Source: a virus
Taxonomy: Duplodnaviria > Caudoviricetes
Strand: one strand, 5' to 3'
Virus record (IMG/VR): IMGVR_UViG_3300025101_000050
Coordinates: 1 to 43,295 of that record
Length of the DNA stretch: 43,295 nucleotides
Part shown: in pieces, positions 10,924-25,860 of the stretch
Position numbering within the stretch: the stretch's first letter is position 1
Layout of the letters: each line of letters opens with the position of its first letter
Program-made: the position numbers and the translations under genes
Notes under the pieces: model-generated
Database searches by the model: none
The model's input: only the letters and a program-made list of their open reading frames with translations
What the model was told of the DNA's origin: nothing

Positions 10924-11106
10924 CTAGGGTTTATTATCTTCTAAGTAATCGTAAATAAGATCTTCAATTAAATCTTGTGAGTGAAATATAATATCTCTCT
11001 TATAAACATTATGTAAAATTTCTTGTCGAGAATCTCCACCCTCTTCAATTGTTTTTTGAATATATTCTTCTTCTTGTTCAAATGCCATTTGTTTTACCTT
11101 GCCCAT
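10924..11106 (-). CDS. Hypothetical acidic protein (60 aa)
   Basis: GGGGAG SD, coupled to upstream gene. Confidence 0.65.
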   Translation of the reverse strand: MGKVKQMAFEQEEEYIQKTIEEGGDSRQEILHNVYKRDIIFHSQDLIEDLIYDYLEDNKP

Positions 11107-11327
11107 TATAGATACTCCCCATGATACAAATTAAACTTTGGTAATGTTCTTTTCAAAAAACATAATTCTAATTCAGAAAAATCCTCAAAGTAAGTTACCA
11201 TTTCATATTTGTTGTTAATAGTGTCTAAATAATAAAGATCGCCATCTTCAACTTTGTAAGCAATGCCATTTACTACTGAGTAAGCAATACCATTTACCAC
11301 TGTTTTTGTTATTTTATTTTTTTTCAT
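11106..11327 (-). CDS. Hypothetical protein with internal 8-aa duplication
   Basis: Preceded by pseudoknot leader copy A and ACGGAG SD. Confidence 0.7.
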   Translation of the reverse strand: MKKNKITKTVVNGIAYSVVNGIAYKVEDGDLYYLDTINNKYEMVTYFEDFSELELCFLKRTLPKFNLYHGEYL

Positions 11328-11378
11328 ATTTTACTCCGTGTTAATTGAGGGAGATTTGTGGTACTCCCTCTTAACCAT
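11325..11378 (-). repeat. Pseudoknot-SD leader, copy A
   Basis: UGGU-UAA-GAGGGAG-U-ACCA-CAAAU-CUCCCUC-19 nt-AUG. Confidence 0.85.
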
Positions 11379-11786
11379 TTATTTGTCTGCTTTCCAAATG
11401 TTAATATAATTTTTCCATTCAGAACCAAGAGCTTTTTTTAATTTGTTTTTGCAACAAGTCCCTAAAAAATGACATCCAGTTAGTTCAACCTTTTTCTCAT
11501 TTTCATCAGTACAATCATCTAAATGAGCAGCAATATCGGAACAACCCTCAACAGTTACTATTGCCCATCTATCTCTGCTAGACTCAAGACTAATATCAAC
11601 TGGTCTGCCACAAATTTGACAAGGTTCAGTATCTTTACCATCAAATCTAGAATGATGCACATATAAGTCATATATAGCATGAGGTCCTCTGTAACCTTTC
11701 CAATCAACATCTGCACTTATGTTAGCCACTCTAACACAGTCAATCTTGTCAAAACTAACCTCTACTTTGTTTACTTTACTTACCAT
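11379..11786 (-). CDS. Cys-rich hypothetical protein (CxxC; start revised from 11837)
   Basis: ACGGAG SD before ATG at 11786; CQICG and further Cys/His residues. Confidence 0.7.
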   Translation of the reverse strand: MVSKVNKVEVSFDKIDCVRVANISADVDWKGYRGPHAIYDLYVHHSRFDGKDTEPCQICGRPVDISLESSRDRWAIVTVEGCSDIAAHLDDCTDENEKKVELTGCHFLGTCCKNKLKKALGSEWKNYINIWKADK

Positions 11787-11837
11787 TTTTTTCTCCGTTA
11801 AAATTGGGGGAGACTTTTGGTACTCCCCCTTGACCAT
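11784..11837 (-). repeat. Pseudoknot-SD leader, copy B
   Basis: UGGU-CAA-GGGGGAG-U-ACCA-AAAGU-CUCCCCC-19 nt-AUG. Confidence 0.85.
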
Positions 11838-11842
11838 TTAGT

Positions 11843-12187
11843 CTATATATGTTTTTCAAGAGTGCCCTTTTCTAAGCAATGAAGTATAAGGCATCTTATA
11901 CCCAACTCTTGAAGGAACCAGCCTTCACAGCCCCACTGTATTATGCCTTTTTGTTTTAAAGAAGACAAAGCACCTCTTTCTCTATTAGCATCTTCAAGTA
12001 ACTCTTTTTCACCCCAATCGTGAGAACACCAAAGAGCATTATCTATAGATTCTGATAAATCATACTCATATTTTGAAAGTATTTTTTTTTCAAGATCAGT
12101 AAGGTTTATCTTAGAAGCATCTTCCCAAGAAAGGTTACCTGGATCGTAAGAGTATATTTCGTTTATTTGTTCTAGTATTTTATTCAT
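11843..12187 (-). CDS. Hypothetical protein, possible winged helix (start revised from 12259)
   Basis: ACGGAG SD before ATG at 12187; GALSSLKQKGII motif. Confidence 0.65.
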   Translation of the reverse strand: MNKILEQINEIYSYDPGNLSWEDASKINLTDLEKKILSKYEYDLSESIDNALWCSHDWGEKELLEDANRERGALSSLKQKGIIQWGCEGWFLQELGIRCLILHCLEKGTLEKHI

Positions 12188-12259
12188 TTTTTTCTCCGTG
12201 TAAGTGTGAAAATTAATTTTCTCACACTTATATACTATCACATCTAATAAGTGATGCAA
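12185..12259 (-). promoter_or_regulatory. Early promoter + palindrome + 5' hairpin + SD leader, copy 1
   Basis: TTGCAT-N16-TAGTAT, ATCAC-N9-GTGAT, hairpin TAAGTGTGA/TCACACTTA; 12188-12228 is 40/41 identical to 23981-24021 (inverted). Confidence 0.8.
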
Positions 12260-12278
12260 GTCTTTTTTTTATTTTTAT

Positions 12279-12794
12279 TTATTTTTTTTCAGGAGTTACA
12301 TCAATAATATTTGATGCGTCTTTAATTTTTCCTTCGAGCTCTTCCAATCTTTTTTCTAACTGCTCTCGATTCATTCCCTCTAAAGTATTATGAGTGATTT
12401 CTTTCTTATCAACAAACATGCCTGCCATTTGACCAGCTCTATACTCTGCATTAATAGCTCCTGTGTATTGACCTTTTACCTCTGCTCCGTTCCTTAACCT
12501 CTCAAAGATCTTAAAACGCCTTAATTTATCTTTGTCATATTTTTCTTGCTCTTTTGACATTCTTTTTTCAAAGTACCTACACACATGAGGATTTAAGTCA
12601 GGGTTCAATAATCTACTAGCCTGTTCATATGGTTTACCTCTTTCTGATGTATATCCAGCTTTTGCGGCAGCATCAACTTTTGTTATGTTTCCCCAATTTT
12701 CTACTAATATATCTACAAATTGTCTTTGTTGAACTGTTAATTCAGTAGTAGATTTTAACTGATTTGGTTTTCTTGGCATTCCCAATTTTACCAT
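12279..12794 (-). CDS. terS: Terminase small subunit
   Basis: LTVQQRQFV...AAAKAGY...ASRLL N-terminal HTH, G.Y..AI.AE...G...GMF motif. Confidence 0.8.
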   Translation of the reverse strand: MVKLGMPRKPNQLKSTTELTVQQRQFVDILVENWGNITKVDAAAKAGYTSERGKPYEQASRLLNPDLNPHVCRYFEKRMSKEQEKYDKDKLRRFKIFERLRNGAEVKGQYTGAINAEYRAGQMAGMFVDKKEITHNTLEGMNREQLEKRLEELEGKIKDASNIIDVTPEKK

Positions 12795-12854
12795 AATATA
12801 TTTACTTAGAAATAAAAAAAAATAAAAAAAAATGCATATTTCACCTCAAAAATT

Positions 12855-12965
12855 TTAATTTTTCCTATTTTTTAGGAATTTTTCCTAAAACTTTCCTAAA
12901 ACTTTTTGTCTTTTTTCCTTATTTTCTGGTATTTTTCCTAGTTTTCCCAAAATATAGTCCTATTT
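12855..12965. repeat. Cluster of TTTCCTA repeats in an AT-rich non-coding region (candidate origin or pac region)
   Basis: TTTCCTA at 12861, 12881, 12892, 12934; inverted TAGGAA at 12873; variants at 12914, 12943. Confidence 0.6.
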
Positions 12966-13042
12966 TACCTTTTTACTTTTTTATTTTTTTTTGTAAGGAA
13001 GTGTATTATAGAAAACTGTCAAAAATCATGTATGATTAATTT

Positions 13043-13297
13043 ATGGATTTATATTGGCTCGAGTTCCTTGCAGCGTGTACCGCTATCATTAGTATCTATG
13101 TCTATGGTAATGGATCACATTATGCACCAATCGTGGGTCTTGGCTCTCAGGTTATTTGGATATGGTGGTGTATCGAGATGGAGCTGACAACGATGTTTTT
13201 ACTCTGCCTGGCAATGATATTGACACATTTAAGAAATTTAAAGGTCATGGGAACAATTACAAAACTTCAAGAATTATGGAATCGGTATAAGAAGTAG
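13043..13297 (+). CDS. Small multi-pass membrane protein
   Basis: 84 aa with about three hydrophobic segments; opposite to neighbours. Confidence 0.65.
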   Translation: MDLYWLEFLAACTAIISIYVYGNGSHYAPIVGLGSQVIWIWWCIEMELTTMFLLCLAMILTHLRNLKVMGTITKLQELWNRYKK

Positions 13298-13721
13298 TTG
13301 TATCATGAATTTCTTTTCTGAGCTCATCTAATCGTCTTCTAATTAATCTTTTTTGATCTACACTAATATCACAGGACAAAACTTTATAGATTTTATTATA
13401 CTCTGCCCAACGCACTTGTTTTTTAGTAAAGGCAATTACTTTTCGTTTGAGTGCACTGATGTAATGTTCTCTCATTTCTTCAGGATCGAGTAAAGCCCAT
13501 TCACAAACTTCTCTATAGTCTCGTGATTCTTGGAGAATCCAATTATGAGCTTCGATCTTTTGCACTGCTGACTTTCTATCAGAGAGCGTGATCATTGTAT
13601 CATCGAAGGCGTTTATAACGACAGCACGCCATAATTTATGTTCAGGATTCAGTCTTTTATCGATCACGGATCGAGTAAAGCTTAGTCCCATTAGTTTATA
13701 TAGATAAGGAGAAGAGCTCAT
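13257..13721 (-). CDS. Conserved phage hypothetical protein
   Basis: PEHKLWRAVV..A..D...NW...DY.EVC..A..DP pattern. Confidence 0.65.
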   Translation of the reverse strand: MSSSPYLYKLMGLSFTRSVIDKRLNPEHKLWRAVVINAFDDTMITLSDRKSAVQKIEAHNWILQESRDYREVCEWALLDPEEMREHYISALKRKVIAFTKKQVRWAEYNKIYKVLSCDISVDQKRLIRRRLDELRKEIHDTTTSYTDSIILEVL

Positions 13722-13945
13722 TAGTGAGCAAAGTTTTTGACTAACTCCCTCAAAATCTTTTTATAATTAGCAAGAATGTTTTTGTCAGTTTTTTTCGTTG
13801 CTCGTAGTTTTAGATAATCGACATATAAACTTTCGATTAATTCGTGTTTTTCGTCAGGTGTCATACCATTGGGATCAACAAGAAAAGATACATCTTCATG
13901 TTCAAGAAGATTTTCCCATTCAAATTTATTACTAGACATAACCAT
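13721..13945 (-). CDS. Hypothetical protein (74 aa)
   Basis: GAGG SD; coupled to downstream gene. Confidence 0.6.
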   Translation of the reverse strand: MVMSSNKFEWENLLEHEDVSFLVDPNGMTPDEKHELIESLYVDYLKLRATKKTDKNILANYKKILRELVKNFAH

Positions 13946-13984
13946 AGTATACCTCAGTCAAAAACTACTTACTATTCACACTCT

Positions 13985-14335
13985 TTACTTTTTTTTATAG
14001 ATAGTGGGATCGTAGCCGTTTAAATTAAAGTTAAAATTATTGTTGTCTCGTTGATATCTGATGTTCTTGGATTTGAATGTTGGTAATTGACTATCGCAAT
14101 TAGGACAAACAAATCGAAGATTTTCAAGCCTGTTATCTTTTTTTACCCCATTTATATGGTCAAGTACAAGCGATAATTTTTTTTTCTTCCATTCACCTTT
14201 ATTTTCACAGATAGCACACTCATAAGGAATAAGCTTTTCTTGAATAATTCTGCTCTTTAAATGCGAATAATTTTTGTAGCTAGAGTCTTTAACAAACAAT
14301 TTTTCGTTAGGTATTCGTGTGTATTTGTTAGCCAT
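13985..14335 (-). CDS. HNH endonuclease
   Basis: CAIC...LDHING...DNRLENLRFVCPNC. Confidence 0.9.
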   Translation of the reverse strand: MANKYTRIPNEKLFVKDSSYKNYSHLKSRIIQEKLIPYECAICENKGEWKKKKLSLVLDHINGVKKDNRLENLRFVCPNCDSQLPTFKSKNIRYQRDNNNFNFNLNGYDPTIYKKK

Positions 14336-14386
14336 ACCAATTTCCCCCTTATTATAAGATAAAGGTTCGTGGTTCGTGTGTCTAGG

Positions 14387-14539
14387 TCAGTGCCTTTTAA
14401 TTTTTTTAAATACAATACTGCAATAAGGGCATCTAACCTCATCAACTCCTTCAAGTGATAAATAAATTAGAGGATGACCTCCAGAGTCTTCACCCCTGCA
14501 ACATACTGTTTTTTCATTAAAGACTTGAATAGTTTTCAT
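14387..14539 (-). CDS. zf-CHCC zinc-finger protein, 50 aa (not in ORF track)
   Basis: MKTIQVFNEKTVCCRGEDSGGHPLIYLSLEGVDEVRCPYCSIVFKKIKRH; C-x-G...GHP.IY...CPYC; ATGA-coupled to upstream gene. Confidence 0.8.
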   Translation of the reverse strand: MKTIQVFNEKTVCCRGEDSGGHPLIYLSLEGVDEVRCPYCSIVFKKIKRH

Positions 14540-14697
14540 AGCTTAGTTCGAGCTCCTGAGTGACCTGAGCCACGGCAGGCGTTGCAAACATAAGTGGTGT
14601 CTATTCCTTTATCTTTGAATCTGTCAGGACGGATAAAACCATTGCCGTGACATTCTTCACAGACTTCATAAATTAAAATTTTTTTTTTTAAATTCAT
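14536..14697 (-). CDS. DnaJ-type zinc-finger mini-protein (start revised from 14718)
   Basis: CEECHGNG and CNACRGSG (two CxxCxGxG); ATGA overlap with upstream stop. Confidence 0.75.
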   Translation of the reverse strand: MNLKKKILIYEVCEECHGNGFIRPDRFKDKGIDTTYVCNACRGSGHSGARTKL

Positions 14698-14900
14698 TCT
14701 TTTTCCTTCATTACACATTGCTGTTTATATTTTGTATATCCAAATATATCTAATGATGGGTTCTTTGGATCTGCTTTCGACCACCCTTTATCAATCCATA
14801 CACAAGTATATTCTCTTTCATTGTTTTTTCTTTGCACAAAAAAATCGGCATTGCTCCAGGTATATAGATTTATTACTAAGCCTACAATTAGCGTTTCCAT
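14694..14900 (-). CDS. Hypothetical protein with N-terminal hydrophobic segment
   Basis: AGGAG SD, 68 aa. Confidence 0.6.
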   Translation of the reverse strand: METLIVGLVINLYTWSNADFFVQRKNNEREYTCVWIDKGWSKADPKNPSLDIFGYTKYKQQCVMKEKE

Positions 14901-15139
14901 AATTTCTCCTTATCTTTTAGTTCATCCCATTTGTTTAACTTATATTTTTTAAACCAAGTGACAGGATCGTTACACTTAGCTGCTTTTATTTTTTTATTTG
15001 GATTTTTATCTTCAAAATCCTCGATGAGTTTTGTTACGGCTGTTTGACACTCACTATATTCAAAATTGGGAATATGTTTAATTGTCAATTTATTATTATA
15101 TTCTATCCAAATAGTTAGGATAAACCACTTAAACATCAA
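14888..15139 (-). CDS. Hypothetical protein with N-terminal hydrophobic segment
   Basis: 83 aa, KWFILTIW, two Cys. Confidence 0.6.
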   Translation of the reverse strand: MMFKWFILTIWIEYNNKLTIKHIPNFEYSECQTAVTKLIEDFEDKNPNKKIKAAKCNDPVTWFKKYKLNKWDELKDKEKLWKR

Positions 15140-15335
15140 TACCTAATCCTTCTCTTGCTTTTTGTCTTATAAGAAAAGTTTTTTCGTCATAACATCCCCA
15201 CCCTTGAATATCGATGTCGTTTTCTTGCTCATATGTTTGAACTTTATTCCAAATTTTATCTACATTACAAGCTTCAATCTCACCATAAACAATTTCTTCG
15301 CCAGTATAAAGAAACAATATTAAAATCCACTTCAT
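15129..15335 (-). CDS. Hypothetical protein with N-terminal hydrophobic segment
   Basis: 68 aa, MKWILILFL, two Cys, GGGAG SD. Confidence 0.6.
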   Translation of the reverse strand: MKWILILFLYTGEEIVYGEIEACNVDKIWNKVQTYEQENDIDIQGWGCYDEKTFLIRQKAREGLGIDV

Positions 15336-15586
15336 TTTATCTCCCTACAAAAAACTCTAAAATGATTATCGAAATGGTCACACTTAGTTACTACAAGAGC
15401 TTTCATTTTATGACCACCATATTCAAAAGTAGTATCTGTTCTTACAGGGATTCTTGTAGGTATAGAGACATAAATACCTTTTTCATAATCTTCATGAGGT
15501 TGCCCATCATCTCTATAACCTGGAGCATAATTTTTATTATCCATGTAAACTAAAAATTCTGCCCATTTGGGTTTAGTCTCTGACAT
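15332..15586 (-). CDS. Hypothetical protein (84 aa)
   Basis: Coupled ORF in operon. Confidence 0.6.
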   Translation of the reverse strand: MSETKPKWAEFLVYMDNKNYAPGYRDDGQPHEDYEKGIYVSIPTRIPVRTDTTFEYGGHKMKALVVTKCDHFDNHFRVFCREIK

Positions 15587-15788
15587 TAGATTTTTTTCCT
15601 TTTTCTAAAAGTTGTTCTGAAAAGGCTTCATAACTTGTTCCTTCTTTTTTAGCTTGATAGCGAATTGTTTCATCAATCATTTTGCTAAGCATGTTATTAG
15701 GTCTTCTATATTTTACTGAGCATAGACCCTTTAATTTGTAGTAACAATCTTTTCTTATAGCAACTGTGTGCCATTTTGTAGTATCCAT
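15573..15788 (-). CDS. Putative ribbon-helix-helix DNA-binding regulator
   Basis: N-terminal strand (WHTVAI) followed by two helices; AAGGA SD; hairpin leader upstream. Confidence 0.55.
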   Translation of the reverse strand: MDTTKWHTVAIRKDCYYKLKGLCSVKYRRPNNMLSKMIDETIRYQAKKEGTSYEAFSEQLLEKGKKSNVRD

Positions 15789-15808
15789 AATTTTTTCCTT
15801 ATGTATGT

Positions 15809-15856
15809 GGGTGTGAAAATATGAAAATTATTCTCACACCCTATATTAATATTATA
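15809..15856 (-). promoter_or_regulatory. TATAAT box and variant GTGTGA/TCACAC 5' hairpin
   Basis: GGGTGTGA/TCACACCC stem with GAATAATTTT loop start, homologous to the hairpins at 12201 and 23981. Confidence 0.6.
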
Positions 15857-16130
15857 AAATTGGTCTGTTGGTATTTAAATGATCAGGTATGGATGCTTTA
15901 TTTAGATCATTATAATCTTGTATATCCATGTCTAACCAAGCAACTGTGTTTTCACTTGTTGCAATTTGTGTTCTGATTTCTACATCATTGTGTAACATAT
16001 TAAACAGAACAGGCAACTTAGCATCTGCAATAGTATCATATTCAGTTCTTTCAATAGACCTATTTTTATTTAGCTTAATTGCTTTTTCGTTCAAATCAAT
16101 GAACTGTTTTTTTGTTAAGTATGATATCAT
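15852..16130 (-). CDS. Hypothetical protein (92 aa)
   Basis: AAGG SD; upstream TTGCAT-N17-TATATT promoter containing ATCACAT. Confidence 0.65.
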   Translation of the reverse strand: MISYLTKKQFIDLNEKAIKLNKNRSIERTEYDTIADAKLPVLFNMLHNDVEIRTQIATSENTVAWLDMDIQDYNDLNKASIPDHLNTNRPIL

Positions 16131-16201
16131 GTTAAACCTTTCTTCGTATTAATTAATATCAATTACAAATATATATGTTTAAATGTGATAATGCAAGCTA
16201 A

Positions 16202-16230
16202 TTGACATCTTTTATAATCTTTTTTATACT
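16202..16230 (+). promoter_or_regulatory. Near-consensus sigma70 promoter
   Basis: TTGACA-N17-TATACT. Confidence 0.75.
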
Positions 16231-16251
16231 TTAGTATGAAAGGAAGTGAAA

Positions 16252-16425
16252 ATGGCAATAGCTGAATTGTTAAATGCTAAGATGTCTTTGGAATCCAAGT
16301 GGAATGCCATGTATAATGAAAGTGGTGTTTACTCTGTTGAGATGAAAGATATTGAAAAAAAAATTGACGCTATAAAGCAAGCTTTGGTTCTAGCGGATAT
16401 AAGAGAAGCAAAAGCGAAATACTAG
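16252..16425 (+). CDS. 57-aa coiled-coil protein (not in ORF track)
   Basis: MAIAELLNAKMSLESKWNAMYNESGVYSVEMKDIEKKIDAIKQALVLADIREAKAKY; AAGGA SD and consensus promoter. Confidence 0.75.
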   Translation: MAIAELLNAKMSLESKWNAMYNESGVYSVEMKDIEKKIDAIKQALVLADIREAKAKY

Positions 16426-18293
16426 CTCGCTTCACCGAAGTCTTTGCCTAAAGCAACATCTACTACACTTGGAACTCTAAGTTGTACGCCACCCTCCATC
16501 ACTGTCTTTATTTTCTTAGCATGCTCTTCAGAAGAAATATTAAAACATAATTCATCATGTATTTGTAAGAGAGCCAAATCACCTTGCTCATAACAATCAA
16601 CAATGGCTTTTTTTGTTTGGTCAGCTCCTGATCCTTGAATCAATCTATTTAGAGCTTTATAAGTAAAAGCTCTTTTAATATTACTAGCACCATATTTTGC
16701 AGAAGCATTTTCAAACTTTTCAGGAGTATGAATACCAAAATCTTTTGTTTCCCACATATCAAAACGACATTTTCTTCCAAGTTTAGTTCGAATGACTCCT
16801 TCGCTGTTAGCCTTCTTCATGCATCTATCTGATAATAATTTTACAAAAGGTGCCTTGCGATTAAACTTAGCAATGAGTGCACTGGCTTCATCAAAACCTA
16901 AACCCAACATATTAGCTAATTTATTCTTACCCATTCCGTACATCAAACCTAAACCAATTGTTTTTGCCTGCTTTCTATCTATACCAACTAAGTCAGCTAC
17001 AGTCTGATGAAAGTCAGCGTCAGCTTTTGTGTAAGCTTCGACAAGCTCTTGTGATCCCTCATAACCTTCACCAATACTCGAAGCATAATGCACCACCAAA
17101 CGAGGTTCTTGTTGTGAATAATCAAAAGAACCCCATTGATGGTTTTCTTCAGGAAGAAAAAGTCCTCTGATTATCGGTCCAAATTCTTTATTGCGTGCAG
17201 GTAATTGTTGAAGATTGGGACTTGACATACTAAGACGACCACTTACAGTGCCTCCTGTATCAGAGCGTAATTGATTTATTTCGGCATGAATTCTACCTTT
17301 ATGTTCAAACTTCATTATTGAATTTAAAAATGTATTGTGAAATTTATTTATTTCTCTAGCTTGTACAATTAATTTAGAAATATCTTGATCAGAATTTATT
17401 AACCAATTCTGTGTGAAGCTTGGTTCACCACTTTTAGGAGTTTTAGGATATGAAATACCTAACTTATCAAAACCAAAAGCGATTTGTCTTGCTGCCCAAA
17501 TATCTATATCTTTCCCAACAAGTTTTTTTATTTTAAGTAAAATATCTTTTTCTTTTTCAATAAATTTTTTTTGCAAAGAAGATGCCCTTTCAACATCAAC
17601 TCGAATACCTGTTCTTCTCATCTTAATTAGTATTGGCAATAAGCGTTTTTCAAGATCCCATACAGTCTCTAAACTTTGTGAATGTATTTCATGTTTAAAC
17701 CTTTGCCATAAAAGGTAAGTGAGCCGTGCATCTTGTTCAGCGTAGTATCCAACATGTTCTGCTGGCAACATCCACATTTCAGCTTTTGGATCAACGCCAT
17801 GAGCCTGAGCTGCTTCTTTTAAATCTGTCTCTGCTTTTAACTCTCCTAAATAATCCTTAGCCAAAGCGTTTAATTTATAAGTGTATCTATTCTCATCAAT
17901 TAAAGCTCCTGCAATCATGGTATCGACAATTTCTCCTTTAACTTCGATACCATAAGCGTTAAGCCATCCAACATCATACTGGGCATTATGAAAAATTTTT
18001 CGGCAAGGTAACGAACAAATGTCATTCATATATTTCAACACTTGTTCCTTTATTAAGTTACCTCCACCGAAATGACCGAAAGGATAATAACCTTGCCATC
18101 CCTCTGTAGCGATAGCAAAGCCGATTATCTCTCCTTGGTTTGTTGCCCAACCAGCTCCTAATCCATTATTAATTCCATCATCTCTAGTTTCTAAATCTAT
18201 TGCAATTTCCTGTGCCTCGGACAAATCCTTATATTCACACGGAGCTGACCACATATGTTTTTTAAAGTTAAATGTAAGTTGCAGGCTAGTCAT
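16422..18293 (-). CDS. polA: DNA polymerase family A with 3'-5' exonuclease
   Basis: Exo motifs DLET, HNAQYD, YAEQD; pol motifs DYSQQEPR, KTIGLGLMYG, QIHDEL. Confidence 0.95.
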   Translation of the reverse strand: MTSLQLTFNFKKHMWSAPCEYKDLSEAQEIAIDLETRDDGINNGLGAGWATNQGEIIGFAIATEGWQGYYPFGHFGGGNLIKEQVLKYMNDICSLPCRKIFHNAQYDVGWLNAYGIEVKGEIVDTMIAGALIDENRYTYKLNALAKDYLGELKAETDLKEAAQAHGVDPKAEMWMLPAEHVGYYAEQDARLTYLLWQRFKHEIHSQSLETVWDLEKRLLPILIKMRRTGIRVDVERASSLQKKFIEKEKDILLKIKKLVGKDIDIWAARQIAFGFDKLGISYPKTPKSGEPSFTQNWLINSDQDISKLIVQAREINKFHNTFLNSIMKFEHKGRIHAEINQLRSDTGGTVSGRLSMSSPNLQQLPARNKEFGPIIRGLFLPEENHQWGSFDYSQQEPRLVVHYASSIGEGYEGSQELVEAYTKADADFHQTVADLVGIDRKQAKTIGLGLMYGMGKNKLANMLGLGFDEASALIAKFNRKAPFVKLLSDRCMKKANSEGVIRTKLGRKCRFDMWETKDFGIHTPEKFENASAKYGASNIKRAFTYKALNRLIQGSGADQTKKAIVDCYEQGDLALLQIHDELCFNISSEEHAKKIKTVMEGGVQLRVPSVVDVALGKDFGEAS

Positions 18294-18474
18294 TAGCAGT
18301 CTCTATTTTTTTTTTGCCAAGTTCGTCAGTTGGAACTGTTGGTAAATACACTTCGACATAGGTACCACAATTAGGACAAGATAAATTTGTAACCATGCAA
18401 AATTGATCATTCTCTTCTTCAATATCATGATCCCCACCCCAAATTAATTCTGTATCACAGTGCCAACATTTCAT
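18286..18474 (-). CDS. Zinc-ribbon protein
   Basis: CWHC...CPNC. Confidence 0.7.
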   Translation of the reverse strand: MKCWHCDTELIWGGDHDIEEENDQFCMVTNLSCPNCGTYVEVYLPTVPTDELGKKKIETAND

Positions 18475-18800
18475 TCGTAATCTCTTTCTTTTATCATCTC
18501 TAAATAGTGAATAGCTTTCTCAATGTCTTTTTTACCACCACCACCTTCTTGATTATGTCTCGATGTGTACTTAATAACATTACCTTCAGGAAATTTTAAA
18601 TTATTAACCAATATAAATTGACCAGGTTGTATGTGAAAATTTTTGTAATGCTTACTTCCTTTTTTCCAAACATCATCCTCAACAACTGTTTCATAAAAAC
18701 CTTTCCATAAATTACCAAACTTATCTAAATCGTCTGGGTCTAGTTGATCTTTATATTTTTTAAAAAAGCGTGAGAGCATGTTTGATATATCAGTTTTCAT
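18471..18800 (-). CDS. DUF3310/SaV-like protein
   Basis: HY...IQP...EGNVIKY.SR...KDIEKAIHY. Confidence 0.75.
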   Translation of the reverse strand: MKTDISNMLSRFFKKYKDQLDPDDLDKFGNLWKGFYETVVEDDVWKKGSKHYKNFHIQPGQFILVNNLKFPEGNVIKYTSRHNQEGGGGKKDIEKAIHYLEMIKERDYE

Positions 18801-19293
18801 AATAATCCCTTTCTATCTCCTCCAATAAATCTTCAAAGCGTAATTCATTTTTATCTTGTAAAAATTCCACAGTTAAAACCATTCTGATTCCATTATAATT
18901 TAAAACCATATGATCTTGTTGATTGTTTAGTAAAAACCTACTGCCAGGAAAATATTGCAGTTCAATAATCGGATGGTTTACATCAAACTCTTTTCTGAAA
19001 AAAGTGTATGAAGTATTAGGTGTATTGATCAAACAGTTTACTGTAACACCTCTATTTGAATCTTTGTGCCAGTTGTACATTGTCTGATGTTCCATTTTTA
19101 AAACACCAGCTTTATAGGGATGTCTATCATATAGCCACTTATAAAAATGATCTCTAAATAAAACTTCTTTCTCAATAGGACAAGCTGTAAAGTTAAAGTA
19201 GTTTACCCATTCAGTTTCAGGATTAAAAATTATGTCATGTAGCTCAGGACTGTAAAATTGACCCACTCGAAGTTCTTGAAAAAAAGGTTTCAT
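18790..19293 (-). CDS. Putative 2OG-Fe(II) oxygenase / cupin-fold protein
   Basis: WHKD...DHMVLN...R (HxD...H...R). Confidence 0.6.
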   Translation of the reverse strand: MKPFFQELRVGQFYSPELHDIIFNPETEWVNYFNFTACPIEKEVLFRDHFYKWLYDRHPYKAGVLKMEHQTMYNWHKDSNRGVTVNCLINTPNTSYTFFRKEFDVNHPIIELQYFPGSRFLLNNQQDHMVLNYNGIRMVLTVEFLQDKNELRFEDLLEEIERDYYEN

Positions 19294-20912
19294 TATTGCT
19301 CCTGTAAATAAATTAAATAGTCTTTTCCGATGGGATAATTAAATCGGAAATCGGTTGATAAAATATGTAAAGTATCTTTGGCTCTTGTGACGGCTGTATA
19401 ATAAACTCTTTTCTCATCTGACTTTTCTTCTTTACTTTTTTTATCATAGGTCGATGCATAGTTAGTTTTTGAATAAATCAAAACATTATTAGCTTCACCA
19501 CCTTTGACTGAATGTATTGTATCAATAATTATATTGGGATCACTTGATAATATTTTTTGACCATAATTTTTCAATAACTGAACAAAATAAGTTACCTGAT
19601 TATCTTTAAAATTTCTTTTCAAAACTTCCCACCATTTTTTCTTTAAAAAAGAATTATCCATGTCTAAGCCACACCATTCTCTCAAATCTTTTAAATCGAA
19701 CATCTGAGTCTCAGGTATATTCTGCCAAAACTTTTGTGTCCTAAAATTAAAATCTTTTAGTTCTCTTAGGTATTTATACATATTTTCTGCACTATTCCTA
19801 CTAATTTTTTTATTATTAGTAATTTTTGTCCAAGCTTTAATAGCCTCCCATTGTTTTACGTCAAAACTTTTATTACCTTTATTATCAGAAAAATATAAGC
19901 CAACATCTTTCGCACACATTCTTAATTCATTTACAGTCGAATGAATTCTACCCAAAATATACCAAGTGCCTTCTAGGCTATGAAAAGGTATTTCACTAAA
20001 ATTAAGGTATCTTTTTACGCTGCCTTTTTTAGGTAAGCAGTCATAATCTTTCTCAACACTATCAAAAATTCCTCGTCTAATGATTTGAGAAAAACGATAA
20101 ATCTCTTCACCAAACCTTCTTGTTTGTCTCAAGATAACTTTGCGACCAGGAAAATAAGTAGTAAAGTATTTTGGATCTGCTCCATTCCATTTATAGATAC
20201 CTTGGTCATCATCACCTGCTAAATAAATTTTTTTCACATTGTCCGCCATCTTATAAATTACTGACCATTGCAAAGGTGTAAAGTCCTGAGCTTCATCTAA
20301 GATTAAAATTTCAAGTGGAGGAAAATTAACTTCGTCAATTGATCTTTCAATCATATCTGTGAAGTCAATAAATGAATCTTTTTTATAGTGCTCGTAAGTG
20401 TCAATCTTTCTGAGAAAAATTTCAAGACTATCTTTTTTATAACTCTCTTTCTTATAAATTAGCTGAGGTTCTTGGAGCGTGTTCCGTGCTTTATCATACA
20501 CGCCTAATGACCAATCTTTATAATGAAAATTATCATCAGACAAACGATTATCGGATGTTTTAATTATCTTAGCTTGTAATGCATAATCAAGCATACAGTT
20601 CTTAGGATCAAAAACCTCTTCTTCAAAATAACGCCTGCAATATTTATGAAGCGTTTTAAATCGTTGAAAGTCATCTGTGGTGTATTGTGTAAAAGTTGCC
20701 AAGGCTCTGTCTCTTGCTGTATCCACTGCCTTGTTTGTAAATGAAATAAAAGCAATGTCTTTTGGGTGTATGCCTCTAGCTAAATGTTTCTTTAAAATTC
20801 TCTCAATTAAAGTGTGCGTTTTTCCAGTGCCAGGAGGACCAAAAATCTTTACTGTTTTTTTATATAAGTTCTTATGCTTTTGTATCCCTGAACTTGTCAT
20901 GATGTTCTTCAT
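19293..20912 (-). CDS. Superfamily 1 (UvrD/Rep-like) helicase
   Basis: GPPGTGKT, LDEAQD, GDDDQ.IY, TIHSVKGGE, YTAVTRAK. Confidence 0.9.
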   Translation of the reverse strand: MKNIMTSSGIQKHKNLYKKTVKIFGPPGTGKTHTLIERILKKHLARGIHPKDIAFISFTNKAVDTARDRALATFTQYTTDDFQRFKTLHKYCRRYFEEEVFDPKNCMLDYALQAKIIKTSDNRLSDDNFHYKDWSLGVYDKARNTLQEPQLIYKKESYKKDSLEIFLRKIDTYEHYKKDSFIDFTDMIERSIDEVNFPPLEILILDEAQDFTPLQWSVIYKMADNVKKIYLAGDDDQGIYKWNGADPKYFTTYFPGRKVILRQTRRFGEEIYRFSQIIRRGIFDSVEKDYDCLPKKGSVKRYLNFSEIPFHSLEGTWYILGRIHSTVNELRMCAKDVGLYFSDNKGNKSFDVKQWEAIKAWTKITNNKKISRNSAENMYKYLRELKDFNFRTQKFWQNIPETQMFDLKDLREWCGLDMDNSFLKKKWWEVLKRNFKDNQVTYFVQLLKNYGQKILSSDPNIIIDTIHSVKGGEANNVLIYSKTNYASTYDKKSKEEKSDEKRVYYTAVTRAKDTLHILSTDFRFNYPIGKDYLIYLQEQ

Positions 20913-22425
20913 CCATTTCTGTAGAATTTTTATCTTTAGGTTTTATACTTTGATGACTCACAAAATCAGGCATATCAACAAACCATACATTTTTTTCACC
21001 TTCTTTATAATCGGCTCTTTTACATCCTAACATTCGTAAAGCGTCAGCCGTGGTATTAAATGTTCGAGCTGCATTCTTTTTCAAAAATCTATCAAGAGTT
21101 AGTTTTTTAAAATAACAAGTGTTTGTCTTTGAGTCTAAGACCACATAGCCATCTTTTAATTTTTCAAACTTATCCTGTTCAATATGTGACTCAAAGAAAT
21201 CTTTCAGGACAGAATAGCGTTCCTCTTCGACAGTGTCCGTGTATTGATGGTCTGTGGATTCTTCTGATTTATCGACAATAGTTTTCATAAGTAATTCAAA
21301 GGGACTAGGACCTTTTCTTGGTTTCGGTAAAGTCAACCAATATACTCTGTGTCGAAGTAGCTTTACTCTAAATGCTTTTTCATCTTTCATATCCTCAGGA
21401 GTAACACTAATTCTTTGACCTTTATAATCAAACTCATACCAAATGTTTTTTGTATCTTGTATGTAATTAATGTTCTCAAAAAATTCTATGATCTCAGGAA
21501 CAGCCTCACCAATTCCTAAGCGTCTTGTTTTACATAATTCTTTATTACAGATTGGATTATACTCAGGATGTTTTGGAGGGCATTGAAATTCATAACCACC
21601 TTTATGCACTGATTTTGTTAATTGAGATACTTCGTTTTTGCCTAAAGGTTTTGTAAAAATATTTGTGTTTCTATGCTGAGCAATTTCTTCAAGTTGTTGT
21701 AATGTTAATGCAGAATTCTTTTTCATCTCTAAAACAAGTACATTAAACAGAAAATTGTTTCTGTTATTACCACTCCATCCCTCTTGTATTAATTTTTGTA
21801 CACAAGGAGGATAATGTTTCCACTCACTTTCAGCTTCATACTCTTCAACTTTTAATTCAAAAAATTTCTTAGGTTCTATCATTTGCTTTTTAGCAAGTTG
21901 AATAAATCTACCAATCATTACAGGAGTATTGTTTTCATCAAAAGCAAATTCCATAGAAGCATTCATATTATGATAAGGCATATTCACTGCTTTATTACAT
22001 GGAAAAATTTCTTGAGCTAAAAAATATTGTTCGTTTATTTCAGATAATTTATCAGTGACTTTTTTTACATCAGCCATTTCTGTAAAAAAAATAAAAATGT
22101 GCAAGCCCCCTGATTTTGATTTTACTGGCACAAAAGGCAATTTATATTTCTTAATTATTTGTACATACTTTTTTTCTGAATAATCTTTATAATTGTTGGG
22201 ATCAACATCGATGCAACCCCATTTACATTTATCATCAATTTCAGGTTTTAAACCTAATCTTATTTTTCCATCAAGGTGTTGACTCCAAATATCAGCCGTC
22301 ACTGATTCGTGGATCGTGGCGTAGTGAGCTTGTTTCTTGCCTCTCTCATCGTCCTCCCCTGTAAGGGAGGACTTGAGGTAGCGAGAATTGTCACTAGTAA
22401 ACAATTCAAGAAGTTGTTCCTTCAT
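20872..22425 (-). CDS. AEP-superfamily primase-like protein
   Basis: IDVD, SKSGGLH, PPC...RNN.LF helical domain, Cys cluster; no P-loop. Confidence 0.75.
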   Translation of the reverse strand: MKEQLLELFTSDNSRYLKSSLTGEDDERGKKQAHYATIHESVTADIWSQHLDGKIRLGLKPEIDDKCKWGCIDVDPNNYKDYSEKKYVQIIKKYKLPFVPVKSKSGGLHIFIFFTEMADVKKVTDKLSEINEQYFLAQEIFPCNKAVNMPYHNMNASMEFAFDENNTPVMIGRFIQLAKKQMIEPKKFFELKVEEYEAESEWKHYPPCVQKLIQEGWSGNNRNNFLFNVLVLEMKKNSALTLQQLEEIAQHRNTNIFTKPLGKNEVSQLTKSVHKGGYEFQCPPKHPEYNPICNKELCKTRRLGIGEAVPEIIEFFENINYIQDTKNIWYEFDYKGQRISVTPEDMKDEKAFRVKLLRHRVYWLTLPKPRKGPSPFELLMKTIVDKSEESTDHQYTDTVEEERYSVLKDFFESHIEQDKFEKLKDGYVVLDSKTNTCYFKKLTLDRFLKKNAARTFNTTADALRMLGCKRADYKEGEKNVWFVDMPDFVSHQSIKPKDKNSTEMDEEHHDKFRDTKA

Positions 22426-23252
22426 TAGAAAGGAACATCTGAATTAGCATCAGCTTGTTGAGCTGGTTGCTGAACAGATTCTGTGCTTGTTTTTTTATTT
22501 TCTTCTTCAAATGCAACAGTCCCAAAAATATCAGAAGTCTTCGCACTTTTATAAAAAGCATTTAACACCTCTAAAGTATTAAGGTTGCTGTCAGGACTCA
22601 ACATTTTTTCAAACTCGACAACCCATCCGTACCATGAGTTTTGAGAGTTTGATTCTTTGGTTGTTGTTAATTTATAAACTTGACTCCAAGAAGGTGGGCA
22701 GTAAAATCCGTTAGATCCTTTTACTCTTCTTGATTGAAGCATTGAATTCCACAACTTAGATTTCTTTTTTTGTGTAGACTTCATTGTAATCAACGCTGTC
22801 TCAACAGGTGCATAATTTTTATCAAGTATGTAAACAAAATGATTTCCTGTATCCTCAACATAATTACCATTTTCTAATCTATCTTTTCCATCATCGGATC
22901 GAGATGTTTTTCTCATGATGTCATAGTCTCTATGAATAGCAATCGGTCTGCCAGGTGAATCACCTCTGTCTTTCCACTCATTAAAAGTATTTACATAGAG
23001 ACAAGGTACAACTAATACACCATCTTTACCTTTATATAAATTTCCAGTGATCTCATTATAAATATCACCTTGTCTTGCTTTATCATTAAACTTACCATCA
23101 CTCTCATCGAGGACTGGTGAATTAGAATAAAGTATTTTTAAAATTGGTAATTTAGTGTCACGAGCTGTAACAAATTCATTACCTTGATCGGCATGTTCCT
23201 CTAGATTAAATTTTTGTGGAACATTATTTTTTTTTTCTGTAACTTGGTTCAT
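22425..23252 (-). CDS. Putative single-stranded DNA-binding protein
   Basis: Replication module position; aromatic beta-rich core and C-terminal DVPF tail. Confidence 0.6.
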   Translation of the reverse strand: MNQVTEKKNNVPQKFNLEEHADQGNEFVTARDTKLPILKILYSNSPVLDESDGKFNDKARQGDIYNEITGNLYKGKDGVLVVPCLYVNTFNEWKDRGDSPGRPIAIHRDYDIMRKTSRSDDGKDRLENGNYVEDTGNHFVYILDKNYAPVETALITMKSTQKKKSKLWNSMLQSRRVKGSNGFYCPPSWSQVYKLTTTKESNSQNSWYGWVVEFEKMLSPDSNLNTLEVLNAFYKSAKTSDIFGTVAFEEENKKTSTESVQQPAQQADANSDVPF

Positions 23253-23254
23253 GA

Positions 23255-23806
23255 TTACTCCTTCTTTTTAATTGTTGTTTGGTTAGTTACAAATACTGAA
23301 AACAAATCAGTTGGAACATTTTGACCTCTTTGTAATTTTTCTCTCACAAAAGCTTTCAACGTGTTTGGTTCAACTTTTTCGTTTTGGCTCACATTGTATC
23401 CTTGTTCTTGTAAATTTTCAAAAAGTTTTTTAGCATCGCTGTCTTCTGCTCTGCCAAAATTCAAAGACACAATATTTTTAATCAGATCACCTGCACCATT
23501 TTCTCGAAGCCATTCAAACGCTTCTTGCTTTCGAGTATCGCTTGGCATGCGAGCTGAATAAATTGGTTTTACATCAACAGTTGAACCATCGGATAATTTT
23601 AACATGGTCACACCTGCCTCTGCCATAGCCTTCGGAATTTCATTTGTTGCTAAGATTTTCTCGTCCTTTTTTAGATTAGCAAGATTCGCTTCGCATTTTT
23701 CAATTTGTTTCCGAGTGGCTAATAACTCATTGCACTTACTAGCTATGTCAACTGTAAGGCTCGTATCTACATTTACTGTAGCTTCTTTTTCTAAGTCCAT
23801 AAGCAC
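23255..23806 (-). CDS. Conserved replication-module hypothetical protein
   Basis: AFEWLRENG.GDLIKN...VEPNTLKAFVRE; AGGAG SD. Confidence 0.65.
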   Translation of the reverse strand: MLMDLEKEATVNVDTSLTVDIASKCNELLATRKQIEKCEANLANLKKDEKILATNEIPKAMAEAGVTMLKLSDGSTVDVKPIYSARMPSDTRKQEAFEWLRENGAGDLIKNIVSLNFGRAEDSDAKKLFENLQEQGYNVSQNEKVEPNTLKAFVREKLQRGQNVPTDLFSVFVTNQTTIKKKE

Positions 23807-23949
23807 TCCTTATTTTTAAAAGTTATACCTACACTTACATCAGATAATTATTTCCGTCAAGAAAAAATGTGATTAGCAATTAATTTATAAAAAAAATAAA
23901 AAAAGAAAGCAATAAAATCAATGACTTATAAAAAAATGAAAAAAAGGTG

Positions 23950-24025
23950 TTGTATCACATGTTGGATGTGATATTGTATTAGTGTGAGAAAATAAATTTT
24001 CACACTTACACGGAGAAAAAATATG
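23950..24025 (+). promoter_or_regulatory. Early promoter + palindrome + 5' hairpin + SD leader, copy 2
   Basis: TTGTAT-N16-TATTGT, ATCACAT-N5-ATGTGAT, AGTGTGA/TCACACT hairpin, ACGGAG SD. Confidence 0.8.
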
Positions 24026-24550
24026 CATTTAGATTTATTATTTAAAGTAACTGTTGAAACATCCAAGAGAGTAGTGACAACCAAGGATGACAGCAGATTA
24101 ATTACACCAACTAAAATATTTTATTTTATAAATAGTGAGTATGCAGCTCACTTTGTAACTAGGCTTAGTCACAAGGTTAAGTATTACAATGAAGTTAAAA
24201 AAGTATCTATGGATACTGTTTGGAAATTTGATGTTAAAGATCATATGAAAGATTGGATCAGAGTTAACACTAGCCAGGCAGTAGCTGAGTGGTGTGTTCA
24301 TTATGGTCTTGAGAACTATGGAGATAAATCTGCGTTCTCTATCTTCGTAGATAAATTAATTGATAAGTATTCTCGTGTGATCAAGTTAAGACAGGGATAC
24401 AAAAATGTATCTAAAAGAAAATGGTACACTTGGTTCTTACAGAAGAGATTACCAAGGTCTTTGTATGGATCTAGGTCAGAGTTGTTTAGTGAAAACTCTA
24501 GGGCTAAGGTTGAAGAACTTAAATCTTGGGCAACAAGTTTGCAGAGATAA
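24023..24550 (+). CDS. Hypothetical early protein (175 aa)
   Basis: First gene after promoter leader. Confidence 0.7.
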   Translation: MHLDLLFKVTVETSKRVVTTKDDSRLITPTKIFYFINSEYAAHFVTRLSHKVKYYNEVKKVSMDTVWKFDVKDHMKDWIRVNTSQAVAEWCVHYGLENYGDKSAFSIFVDKLIDKYSRVIKLRQGYKNVSKRKWYTWFLQKRLPRSLYGSRSELFSENSRAKVEELKSWATSLQR

Positions 24551-24564
24551 TACTAACCAATCAG

Positions 24565-24618
24565 ATGGTCAAGAGGGAGTACCAAAAATCTCCCTCAACT
24601 TTTACGGAGAAAAAAATG
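24565..24618 (+). repeat. Pseudoknot-SD leader, copy C
   Basis: UGGU-CAA-GAGGGAG-U-ACCA-AAAAU-CUCCCUC-19 nt-AUG. Confidence 0.85.
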
Positions 24619-25500
24619 AAACTTACTTATACACAAAAAGAACTTAATTCAGTGCTTGATGAAATTCTTAATCTTATGAAAACTGAAGGCACTAATTGGG
24701 TCAAAGGTTGGTCATCAAAAATTGCAAGTGGCTTTCCTGTAAATGCAAAAACTAAAAAAACTTATCAAGGTATAAATTTACTTAGTTTGTCTTTGACTGC
24801 TTACAAAGAAGGTTACACTTCTAACGAGTGGGCAACTTACAATCAATGGAAATCTATCAATGAAGATTTCAAAATTAAAAAGGGTGCTGTCACTATTTTC
24901 TTTTGGGGTCAGAAAGATGTCGAGTCAGAAATTCTTGATGACAATGGTAAGCCAAAAAGAAAAACAATTTGGTTTTTAAAAGCTAGTAAAGTTTTTAATG
25001 CCGATTTAGTTGAAGGCTATCAATCAAAAAAAGTTGAGACTGTTAAGAAAACACCTTTACAAATTTCTGAGTCTTTTAACTCTTTTGTCAAAAATACAAA
25101 CGCTGATATTAGACATCTTGGTGGTCGTGCTTTTTATCATACAACTGCCGACTATATTCAAGTGCCAAATTTAAGTGACTTCAATACAGCCGAAGATTAT
25201 TATGGAACTGTTTTACATGAATTGGTTCATTGGACAGGACATAAAAATCGTTTAGAAAGAAATTTCAAATCTGACAAAGAGAGTTATGCTTTTGAAGAAT
25301 TAGTAGCTGAGACAGGTTCTGCATTATTAATGAGTGTTTTAGGTTTATCACCAAGACCAAGAAAAGATCACGCTCAATATCTTAATGGTTGGATGAAAGC
25401 AATTAAGAATGAACCTAAAGCAATCTTTAAAGCTTTTTCAAAAGCAACTCAAGCTCTAGACTTTATATTAAACCTACAAGAAAAAAAGGAGGTGGCGTAA
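24616..25500 (+). CDS. ardC: ArdC-family antirestriction protein (ssDNA-binding domain + zincin-like domain; start revised from 24526)
   Basis: W...W...P.N..T...YQGIN..L...WATYNQW; AFY...D.I..P; YYGTVLHELVHWTGH..RL.R; YAFEELVAE.GSA. Confidence 0.9.
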   Translation: MKLTYTQKELNSVLDEILNLMKTEGTNWVKGWSSKIASGFPVNAKTKKTYQGINLLSLSLTAYKEGYTSNEWATYNQWKSINEDFKIKKGAVTIFFWGQKDVESEILDDNGKPKRKTIWFLKASKVFNADLVEGYQSKKVETVKKTPLQISESFNSFVKNTNADIRHLGGRAFYHTTADYIQVPNLSDFNTAEDYYGTVLHELVHWTGHKNRLERNFKSDKESYAFEELVAETGSALLMSVLGLSPRPRKDHAQYLNGWMKAIKNEPKAIFKAFSKATQALDFILNLQEKKEVA

Positions 25501-25510
25501 TTTATTTATG

Positions 25511-25563
25511 AGCCGAAGGGGACACGGCTAAAGTTGTCCCCAACTTTTACGGAGAAAAAAATG
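25511..25563 (+). repeat. Pseudoknot-SD leader, copy D (diverged, covarying)
   Basis: AGCCG-AA-GGGGACA-CGGCU-AAAGU-UGUCCCC-19 nt-AUG; SD tail identical to copy C. Confidence 0.8.
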
Positions 25564-25860
25564 AAACTAAAAACTCTTAAACAAATGTTAACAAAAATAA
25601 TAGATGAAGTTCGAGATAACACAAATATAGAGAACTTATCTGACAAAGATATAGTTAAGTTAATTGAACATGCTTTATACGAAATATTAAATCCACCAAA
25701 AAAATCGGTTAAAGATAGAATAATACCAAAAGTATCTTCACAAATTGTGGATTCAAAAGACTTGCCATTTAAAAGTCCATTTAAGAATTCTCATTGTATA
25801 GCTATTACTGATGACAGAGATAAACCTGATAATATAATAAGGGTGGATTTCGATGAGTAA
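25561..25860 (+). CDS. Hypothetical protein (start revised from 25534)
   Basis: ACGGAG SD before ATG at 25561. Confidence 0.7.
   Translation: MKLKTLKQMLTKIIDEVRDNTNIENLSDKDIVKLIEHALYEILNPPKKSVKDRIIPKVSSQIVDSKDLPFKSPFKNSHCIAITDDRDKPDNIIRVDFDE

Follow-up and report, generated by a model that had tools for sequence, protein, structure and literature searches.

The known systems closest to the element treated here include several phage leaders. In T4, passages of PMC3014915 describe a single-copy pseudoknot 67 nt upstream of gene 32, an RNase E cut at -71, only a few bases upstream of the pseudoknot, the most stable of the T4 mRNAs, and autoregulation by the gene's own single-stranded DNA-binding protein (SSB). 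DUF2815 RNA (Rfam RF03084) lies at promoters before SSB genes, and PeSLs are repeated intergenic leaders that end in a Shine-Dalgarno sequence (SD) plus start codon and lie in hypervariable regions whose genes are gained, lost or swapped (passages of PMC2839356 and PMC4122927). Here, we analyze a whole virus contig (IMG/VR record IMGVR_UViG_3300025101_000050; 43,295 nt, ~72% complete), hereafter the window, in which a compact 31-nt H-type pseudoknot, hereafter the knot, is repeated before small accessory genes, including the anti-restriction gene ardC. Comparative sequence evidence gives good support for a real, covarying, two-stem structured leader. Public contigs hold 42 distinct versions, and knot copies occur in promoter-led accessory islands of at least five phage architectures (HTVC023P-type, HK97-protease-type, serine-recombinase/RecE, tyrosine-integrase and O-like replicator phages); a few carriers are GC-richer (L142, L210, L319, L385). 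What is new is the sequence family and its multi-copy use across phage types; in its design, the knot is kin to the gene 32 pseudoknot and to DUF2815 RNA.

An initial annotation of this DNA had proposed four copies, with a spacer of 19 nt that contains ACGGAG between each copy and the ATG. All four are present where it placed them, with that spacer and start:

11347..11377, minus strand: pseudoknot copy A, starting 1 nt past the upstream stop codon (stem 1 of 4 bp, loop 1 of 3 nt, stem 2 of 7 bp plus a 15:23 pair, a bulged U, loop 3 of 3 nt)
11328..11346, minus strand: A-rich spacer of 19 nt with the SD GGAG after copy A, read from the sequence
11806..11836, minus strand: pseudoknot copy B, with a U.G wobble at 15:23, 6 nt past the upstream stop codon
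24566..24596, plus strand: pseudoknot copy C, 15 nt past the upstream stop codon and 19 nt before ardC
25511..25541, plus strand: pseudoknot copy D, a variant in which three pairs of stem 1 show compensatory change

In the window, a covariance model made from these and related copies detects the four and no other site above 10.4 bits. Generic H-type geometry was rejected as proof: a scan for it returned 14 rows at about 10 distinct sites in the window, compared to 3-15 in eight shuffles, and is thus not above the shuffled background. The spacer/SD motif is above background, with six matches in the window against 0.57 expected, a number reached by none of 100 shuffles. Two of the six (12205-12189, minus strand; 24004-24020, plus strand) were absent from the initial annotation, and each heads one of the window's two knot-bearing islands, behind a promoter and a plain hairpin.

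The geometry first proposed for the knot, 5-2-7-5-5-7, holds as a two-stem H-type fold but not in its fifth stem 1 pair, which is mismatched in copies A, B and C and unpaired in 36 of the 42 versions; stem 1 is therefore 4 bp long. Position 15 pairs with position 23 in 38 of the 42 versions (C-G in 19, U-A in 18, U.G in 1; other combinations in 4). The C-G and U-A forms both occur within one stem 2 type. True matches have a canonical pair here in 17 of 18 cases, chance matches in 13 of 92. Stem 2 may gain an eighth pair in this way, across the bulged U, or the junction may hold a triple. Loop adenosines are invariant or nearly so, and loop 3 variants of 4, 6 and 9 nt also occur.

Covariation of both stems, as the initial annotation had claimed from four copies, extends to the 42-version alignment, in which 11 of 12 pairs are changed on both sides and 97.6% of cells are paired, a figure flattered by the choice of members partly for their pairing. 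The pairing is equalled by none of 500 shuffles. Every pair of stem 2 covaries. Stem 1 draws its changes from fewer lineages: at pair 1, 35 versions have U-A and five have A-U, one change is seen at pair 3 and four at pair 4, and pair 2 is constant. Scans in which one part of the knot was left free, and whose rows include near-duplicates, tested either stem as well. With stem 1 fixed and the 3' strand of stem 2 free, stem 2 was fully paired (G.U counted) in 30 of 86 IMG/VR matches; with stem 1 free, all four of its pairs formed in 27 of 45 matches with a paired inner stem 2, as opposed to one of the other 65. In metagenomes, with stem 1 partly degenerate, 65 matches had a paired inner stem 2; stem 1 was complete in 63 of them, and two of these are the window's own contig. 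Leaving stem 2 wholly free yielded 18 fully paired sites among 118 matches (27 of 64 parts of the scan covered), and a scan with GGC/GCC as stem 1 found full stem 2 pairing in 2 of 75, both already in the set. Among GTDB genomes, none of 15 pattern matches had both stems. Wobbles in the alignment (four G.U vs. two A.C) provide a weak strand signal; a reversed-sequence control was set aside, since the complement preserves Watson-Crick pairs and is not independent. The related-copy set excludes L297 and L325, whose length and sequence are those of the window contig. The core set of 67 contexts leaves out L300, L319, L257 and L260, and the alignment omits L340, a chance match in coding sequence, and includes L142 and L344.

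The position of the knot is constrained as well. From its end to the SD-led ATG there are 17-24 nt in 64 of the 67 core contexts, with 19 nt in 29 and never fewer than 17 nt; "exactly 19 nt" applies to this genome, the range elsewhere being wider. The SD starts 5-12 nt past stem 2, the spacer is 56% A, and in 67 of 76 contexts neither the spacer nor the first codons are structured. Upstream, 74 contexts in a looser set of 90 have a stop codon 0-15 nt before the knot, an A directly before stem 1 is kept in 51 of 54 copies, and the 10 nt ahead of the knot are 82% AU compared to 66% further up (loose set of 93, including about 12 chance rows). Both islands of the window run in the order promoter, hairpin, gene, knot, gene, knot, gene, and begin with these features:

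12232..12259, minus strand: sigma-70-like promoter of island 1 (-35 at 12259-12254, -10 at 12237-12232; palindrome at 12255-12237)
12204..12227, minus strand: hairpin where the transcript of island 1 is predicted to start, with the same spacer/SD after it
23950..23977, plus strand: sigma-70-like promoter of island 2 (-35 at 23950-23955, -10 at 23972-23977; palindrome at 23954-23972)
23982..24005, plus strand: hairpin where the transcript of island 2 is predicted to start (-9.9 kcal/mol, z -3.5)

The promoters were recognized by eye and by alignment of 10 related promoters; a consensus scan listed neither. Their hairpin reaches 97.8% pairing, and one of its pairs occurs in three forms (A-U, U-A, C-G). 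Across the window and 32 contigs, which were chosen for carrying a knot copy, 31 distinct leaders of the type ACGGAG, A-rich stretch, ATG were counted: a pseudoknot precedes the leader in 17 cases, a promoter with hairpin in 11 and a promoter alone in three, and none stands as a bare internal start. The two structures appear in equivalent slots. In contig L342, the post-terminase promoter has the pseudoknot in the hairpin's place, at the predicted +1; one A precedes stem 1, and the distance from the -10 hexamer is 7 nt. Internal copies show no promoter of their own: a -10 hexamer precedes 6 of 54 copies compared to 5.6 in shuffles, there is no excess of promoters among these 54 upstream regions, with a full promoter in one, and terminator and promoter scans gave no sense-strand terminator at the window's copies. 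The co-regulation of "early" genes suggested by the initial annotation would follow from the sigma-70-like promoters only. In other phages (L006, L007, L010, L015 and L277), this position about 20 nt upstream of the AUG is taken by plain hairpins. Between -35 and -10, the island promoters carry a palindrome (ATCAC, 9 nt, GTGAT), of which some keep the first half only and which recurs in L246, L248, L249, L263, L269, L275, L279 and L342; it looks like an operator for an island regulator.

Genes on either side of the leaders are reassorted extensively. The 67 core contexts join 33 upstream with 42 downstream gene families; the 175-aa first gene of island 2 has seven different next genes in eight related contexts, and ardC has three in six contexts while being followed by the copy D variant in all six. 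The idea of a portable covarying module before unrelated accessory genes is thus borne out, with a range wider than the window. In L263, ardC is missing; in L278 and L247, gene 1 is missing together with its knot, and ardC stands directly behind the promoter hairpin. These losses place most crossovers in the spacer/SD, and crossovers appear, from such comparisons, to fall mainly in the spacer and also between hairpin and pseudoknot leaders. PeSL cassettes are also excised as mini-circles; the joints observed here are short contig joints from mixed samples, and one of them, X3 (24021-24600), is weak, with only 23 nt on one side. Since the leader is a repeat, recombination between its copies, which the reassortment suggests, likely adds, drops and swaps units of open reading frame (ORF) plus pseudoknot between co-infecting phages. 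The knot would then likely mark where accessory genes are exchanged, and unit swapping would likely be a by-product of leader repetition, as for PeSLs. However, each PeSL copy includes a promoter and a terminator stem-loop (passages of PMC2839356 and PMC4122927), whereas internal knots have neither a promoter excess nor a sense-strand terminator and are common to unrelated phage types. Similar islands, with shared small gene families in unrelated phages, lie in L248 (10487-11786), L250 (8573-10404) and L265 (15-1121), adjoining capsid, head protease or head morphogenesis genes.

Concerning novelty, the initial annotation had called the knot apparently undescribed. For this sequence family the statement stands, in that neither the window nor the related copies match an Rfam family at gathering score, but DUF2815 RNA shares the architecture and reaches 28.8 bits on one copy (L305; next 21.6, L315, among 20 loci; gathering threshold 41.2 bits). 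The window's four copies are not matched by the DUF2815 model, nor does the knot model match any of 12 DUF2815 loci, while true DUF2815 members pass the cut-off in 8 of 8 cases tested (scores 58-76). The DUF2815 motif reportedly goes back to Weinberg 2017, a paper whose main text does not contain the name. Both RNAs are H-type with a 4-bp stem 1 and a 7-bp stem 2; both occur in phage contigs and have an A before stem 1 (62 of 64 DUF2815 regions), followed by an unstructured spacer (19-25 nt in DUF2815), SD and AUG. They differ in that DUF2815 has loops of 5 (UAGAC) and 8 nt, compared to 3 and 5 nt in the knot, has NGGG/CCCN as stem 1, and is located at promoters before SSB genes instead of in multiple copies between accessory genes. 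All seven DUF2815 RNAs tested precede Enc34-type SSB genes (Pfam PF10991), a family not found among the genes downstream of the window's knots, and a -10 hexamer lies 5-9 nt before their stem 1 in 25 of 64 upstream regions compared to 6.2 in shuffles. A DUF2815 consensus pattern had 120 matches, 115 with full stem 2. One C after stem 2 and a loop ending in AAGU may also be common ground: the junction takes the C-G form in 19 and the U-A form in 18 of 42 knot versions, whereas DUF2815 has an invariant C, and 0 of 71 non-C matches had stem 2 paired. As this C never varies, the two RNAs would be at most putative homologues. Because loops, gene context and score differ and the knot model misses DUF2815, the knot is no DUF2815 member, though built alike. 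In the DUF2815 RNAs of L486-L605, a single A separates the predicted sigma-70 start from the motif, which can also close a pseudoknot stem of 4 bp with a variable outer pair (A-U, C-G or U-A); the Rfam model as printed shows the hairpin only. In the literature, no description of the knot was found in a search that lay outside most subscription journals and supplements, where it may be listed, and no paper joining pseudoknot and pelagiphage was found. The passages searched in PMC9599517 do not mention ardC, promoters or hypervariable regions, and a term search of 10.64898/2026.09.15.751765 gave no match.

Several other known elements were considered and rejected. SAM-II/V and preQ1 riboswitches hold the SD inside a stem and have a metabolic gene downstream; here, the SD is outside stem 2, complementarity to it is not conserved, and no Rfam family matches, which argues against an SD-sequestering riboswitch. 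An anti-SD switch is likewise not supported, as the CUCC/GGAG complementarity of copies A-C is lost in most stem 2 variants. A read-through or frameshift signal is at odds with a stop-to-knot gap that varies between 0 and 15 nt. In copies B and C, an AUG overlapping stem 1 is in frame with the downstream gene (window 11379-11837, minus strand; similar ORFs in relatives), so that gene callers may extend ORFs by 17 codons through the knot. A leader peptide from this AUG was dismissed: among 68 contexts, 26 are open to the downstream start, 33 are out of frame and nine are stopped in frame, and the copy D reading frame stops inside the knot. Finally, the leading region of plasmid pOXA-48 (L677, 22320-30290; first 35 kb examined) repeats a promoter plus leader before several genes, but its hairpin abuts the SD and its fold is unlike the knot.

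What the knot does for gene expression can be proposed by analogy. To the reading we favor, that it protects the 5' end of internal cistrons after RNase E cleavage, we assign a probability of about 0.45. For genes inside an accessory-gene transcript, the knot would stand in for a 5' end. RNase E of the host would cleave the AU-rich linker immediately before it, after which the knot would shield the end so formed and keep the downstream start site open. We infer that the RNA folds in the cell, is cleaved and protected, and that expression is higher as a result. The presumed cleavage consensus of RNase E and a presumed RNase J in SAR11 form the background here. As in T4 and T2 gene 32, a compact two-stem pseudoknot precedes an unstructured A-rich initiation region; unlike there, the marine knot is repeated, lies 17-24 nt upstream and does not precede an SSB gene. 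Moreover, a structured 5' end blocks access by RNase E and RppH (part of PMC3997798), and RNase E is present in Pelagibacterales (part of PMC5436854). For protection speak the equivalence of hairpin and pseudoknot slots and the fact that all 17 internal ACGGAG leaders follow a knot and the other 14 a promoter; in one case (L277), the downstream gene is missing and stem 2 is broken. The promoter position of the like-built DUF2815 RNAs, the A kept before stem 1, the AU-rich linker and the unstructured start region also count in its favor.

A number of observations weigh against this. Since a plain hairpin would protect a 5' end too, protection alone leaves the conserved loop bases unexplained; L277 has such a hairpin in an internal slot, and three promoter leaders have no 5' structure at all. 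The stop codon is as close to the knot as the start codon, which fits a 3' role too, L267 holds an intact knot without a downstream gene, and knot variants track the upstream gene (z 8.1) over the downstream gene (z 2.3), a linkage that crossovers in the spacer/SD would explain. Descent and stop codons may account for the A before stem 1 and for the AU-rich linker. A small share of an RNA run gave one 190-nt contig inside ardC and no RNA ends. Cultured phages had no blastn match with two queries, HTVC023P and HTVC027P being without the knot. A stronger version, in which the knot is a phage counterpart of exonuclease-resistant RNAs (xrRNAs) that stops host 5'-3' decay and splits the island transcript into long-lived mRNAs, is unlikely. 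Viral xrRNAs are indeed small pseudoknots that block 5'-3' exonucleases, RNase J1 in vitro included, but they need a ring around the 5' end and are known from eukaryotic viruses (passages of 10.1101/262683). If this version held, unrelated marine phages would have a plug-in leader for trading anti-defence and accessory genes together with an expression signal, and knot and orphan DUF2815 RNA would belong to a single structural class.

Among the functions named in the initial annotation, the comparative data favor a 5'-end or nuclease role, followed by enhancement of the ribosomal protein S1 type and then by a repressor operator. The second, ribosome loading without processing, we consider rather unlikely: the knot would bind ribosomal protein S1 or the 30S subunit just beyond the initiation footprint of the ribosome, insulate the start from the coding sequence before it and raise initiation at each internal gene independently. 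Its distance from the AUG, 17-24 nt in 64 of 67 contexts and never less, the unstructured A-rich spacer and the near-invariant loop adenosines would suit this, and sharing across unrelated phages points to a host partner. Protein S1 binds H-type pseudoknots, as seen for in vitro selected RNAs (SELEX), rpsO and tmRNA, and standby translation of tisB needs a 5' pseudoknot (passages of PMC7708055). As proposed for the marine knot, tisB +42 is a processed mRNA that carries a pseudoknot at its 5' end, ahead of a start site, but the tisB ribosome-binding site is sequestered and ~100 nt away, whereas that of the marine knot is adjacent and open (same passages). With start sites already open and equipped with an SD, standby loading is not needed, and loading leaves unexplained why the knot starts one A after the predicted transcript start in L342 and in DUF2815 RNAs. 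It is compatible with 5'-end protection, and both could act together. An operator of the T4 gene 32 type, where the knot would nucleate the binding of phage SSB, ArdC or host SSB over the A-rich spacer and the accessory genes would be shut as free protein builds up, is decidedly less probable. T4 gp32 represses via pseudoknot plus unstructured A+U tract (passages of PMC3014915), the nearest family, DUF2815 RNA, precedes SSB genes, and STAXI RNA (RF01728) consists of pseudoknot repeats near ssb, integrase and antirestriction genes, although in tandems of 2-3 with UUCG loops (passages of PMC2864571); STAXI has no match in the window or in five contigs. However, there is no SSB among the annotated downstream genes (most of the 42 downstream families lying outside the scan), the covariance model found no copy upstream of the window's possible SSB gene (none near 22425-23806), and the knot is common to phages with different replication modules, of which only some have ardC.

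Protection need not concern the downstream gene. In a manner resembling repetitive extragenic palindromes, the GC-rich stem 2 could stop 3'-5' exonucleases past the stop codon of the upstream gene, with the gap to the next AUG merely keeping the knot clear of the ribosome. The short distance to the stop codon, the upstream linkage of variants, including copy D after ardC in 6 of 6 contexts, and the intact knot of L267 without a downstream gene agree with such a role. It is nevertheless improbable, as the knots of L342 and DUF2815 RNAs lie at promoters with no upstream gene in the transcript, the last genes of islands mostly have no knot, and spacer/SD crossovers, such as would put ardC next to the promoter hairpin (L278, L247), explain the linkage. 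Most improbable of all would be a DNA-level recombination site, folded as a single strand like attC and having no RNA function. Integron attC sites form a bottom-strand hairpin and have an integron integrase nearby. Location in consecutive intergenic regions, gene reassortment, an extrahelical base, the weakness of the strand signal from wobbles (4 G.U vs. 2 A.C) and the serine or tyrosine recombinases of some carriers could be cited for it, but orientation and distance to SD and AUG are fixed, crossovers appear to fall mainly in the spacer, and no integrase was found among the 60 window ORFs scanned (contig ~72% complete), for which reason attC itself was rejected.

Being very small and backed by covariation, the knot lends itself, as an RNA part, to direct testing in reporters. 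It provides a testable idea for the orphan DUF2815 motif, namely a 5'-end element or SSB operator, and points to a shared leader repeat as a route by which small accessory genes, including ardC, could pass between unrelated phages whose hosts are likely SAR11. Should the knot protect internal 5' ends or load ribosomes, polycistronic constructs would gain a ready expression part.

The window's DNA polymerase and capsid protein are 72% and 82% identical, respectively, to those of Pelagibacter phage HTVC023P; the phage is therefore HTVC023P-type, and SAR11 is probably its host. Island 1 lies between the likely small and the large terminase subunit genes, and island 2, with ardC, is divergent from the replication genes. 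As the initial annotation had said, the genes downstream of the knots are unrelated and include ardC; they are listed here with the first genes of the islands and the possible SSB gene:

11843..12187, minus strand: first gene of island 1, ORF of 114 aa
11379..11786, minus strand: accessory ORF of 135 aa after copy B, no family above cut-off
11106..11327, minus strand: accessory ORF of 73 aa after copy A, function not assigned
24023..24550, plus strand: first gene of island 2, ORF of 175 aa, function not assigned
24616..25500, plus strand: ardC anti-restriction gene after copy C (Pfam ArdcN plus MPTase-PolyVal, a zincin-like domain; PHROG anti-restriction)
25561..25860, plus strand: accessory ORF of 99 aa after copy D
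22425..23252, minus strand: Pam3 gp34-like protein with a C-terminal DVPF tail, by family scan

The family of the 73-aa ORF occurs behind four different upstream genes and also in HK97-protease-type contigs. SSBs have a characteristic C-terminal motif, and the gp34-like protein, whose gene (22425-23252, minus strand) is placed before primase and helicase genes, may be this phage group's SSB or annealing protein; its structure model has a pLDDT (predicted local distance difference test score) of 30, not usable for identity. At 278-319, after the major capsid gene, a strong bidirectional terminator-like hairpin is the source of weak Rfam matches.

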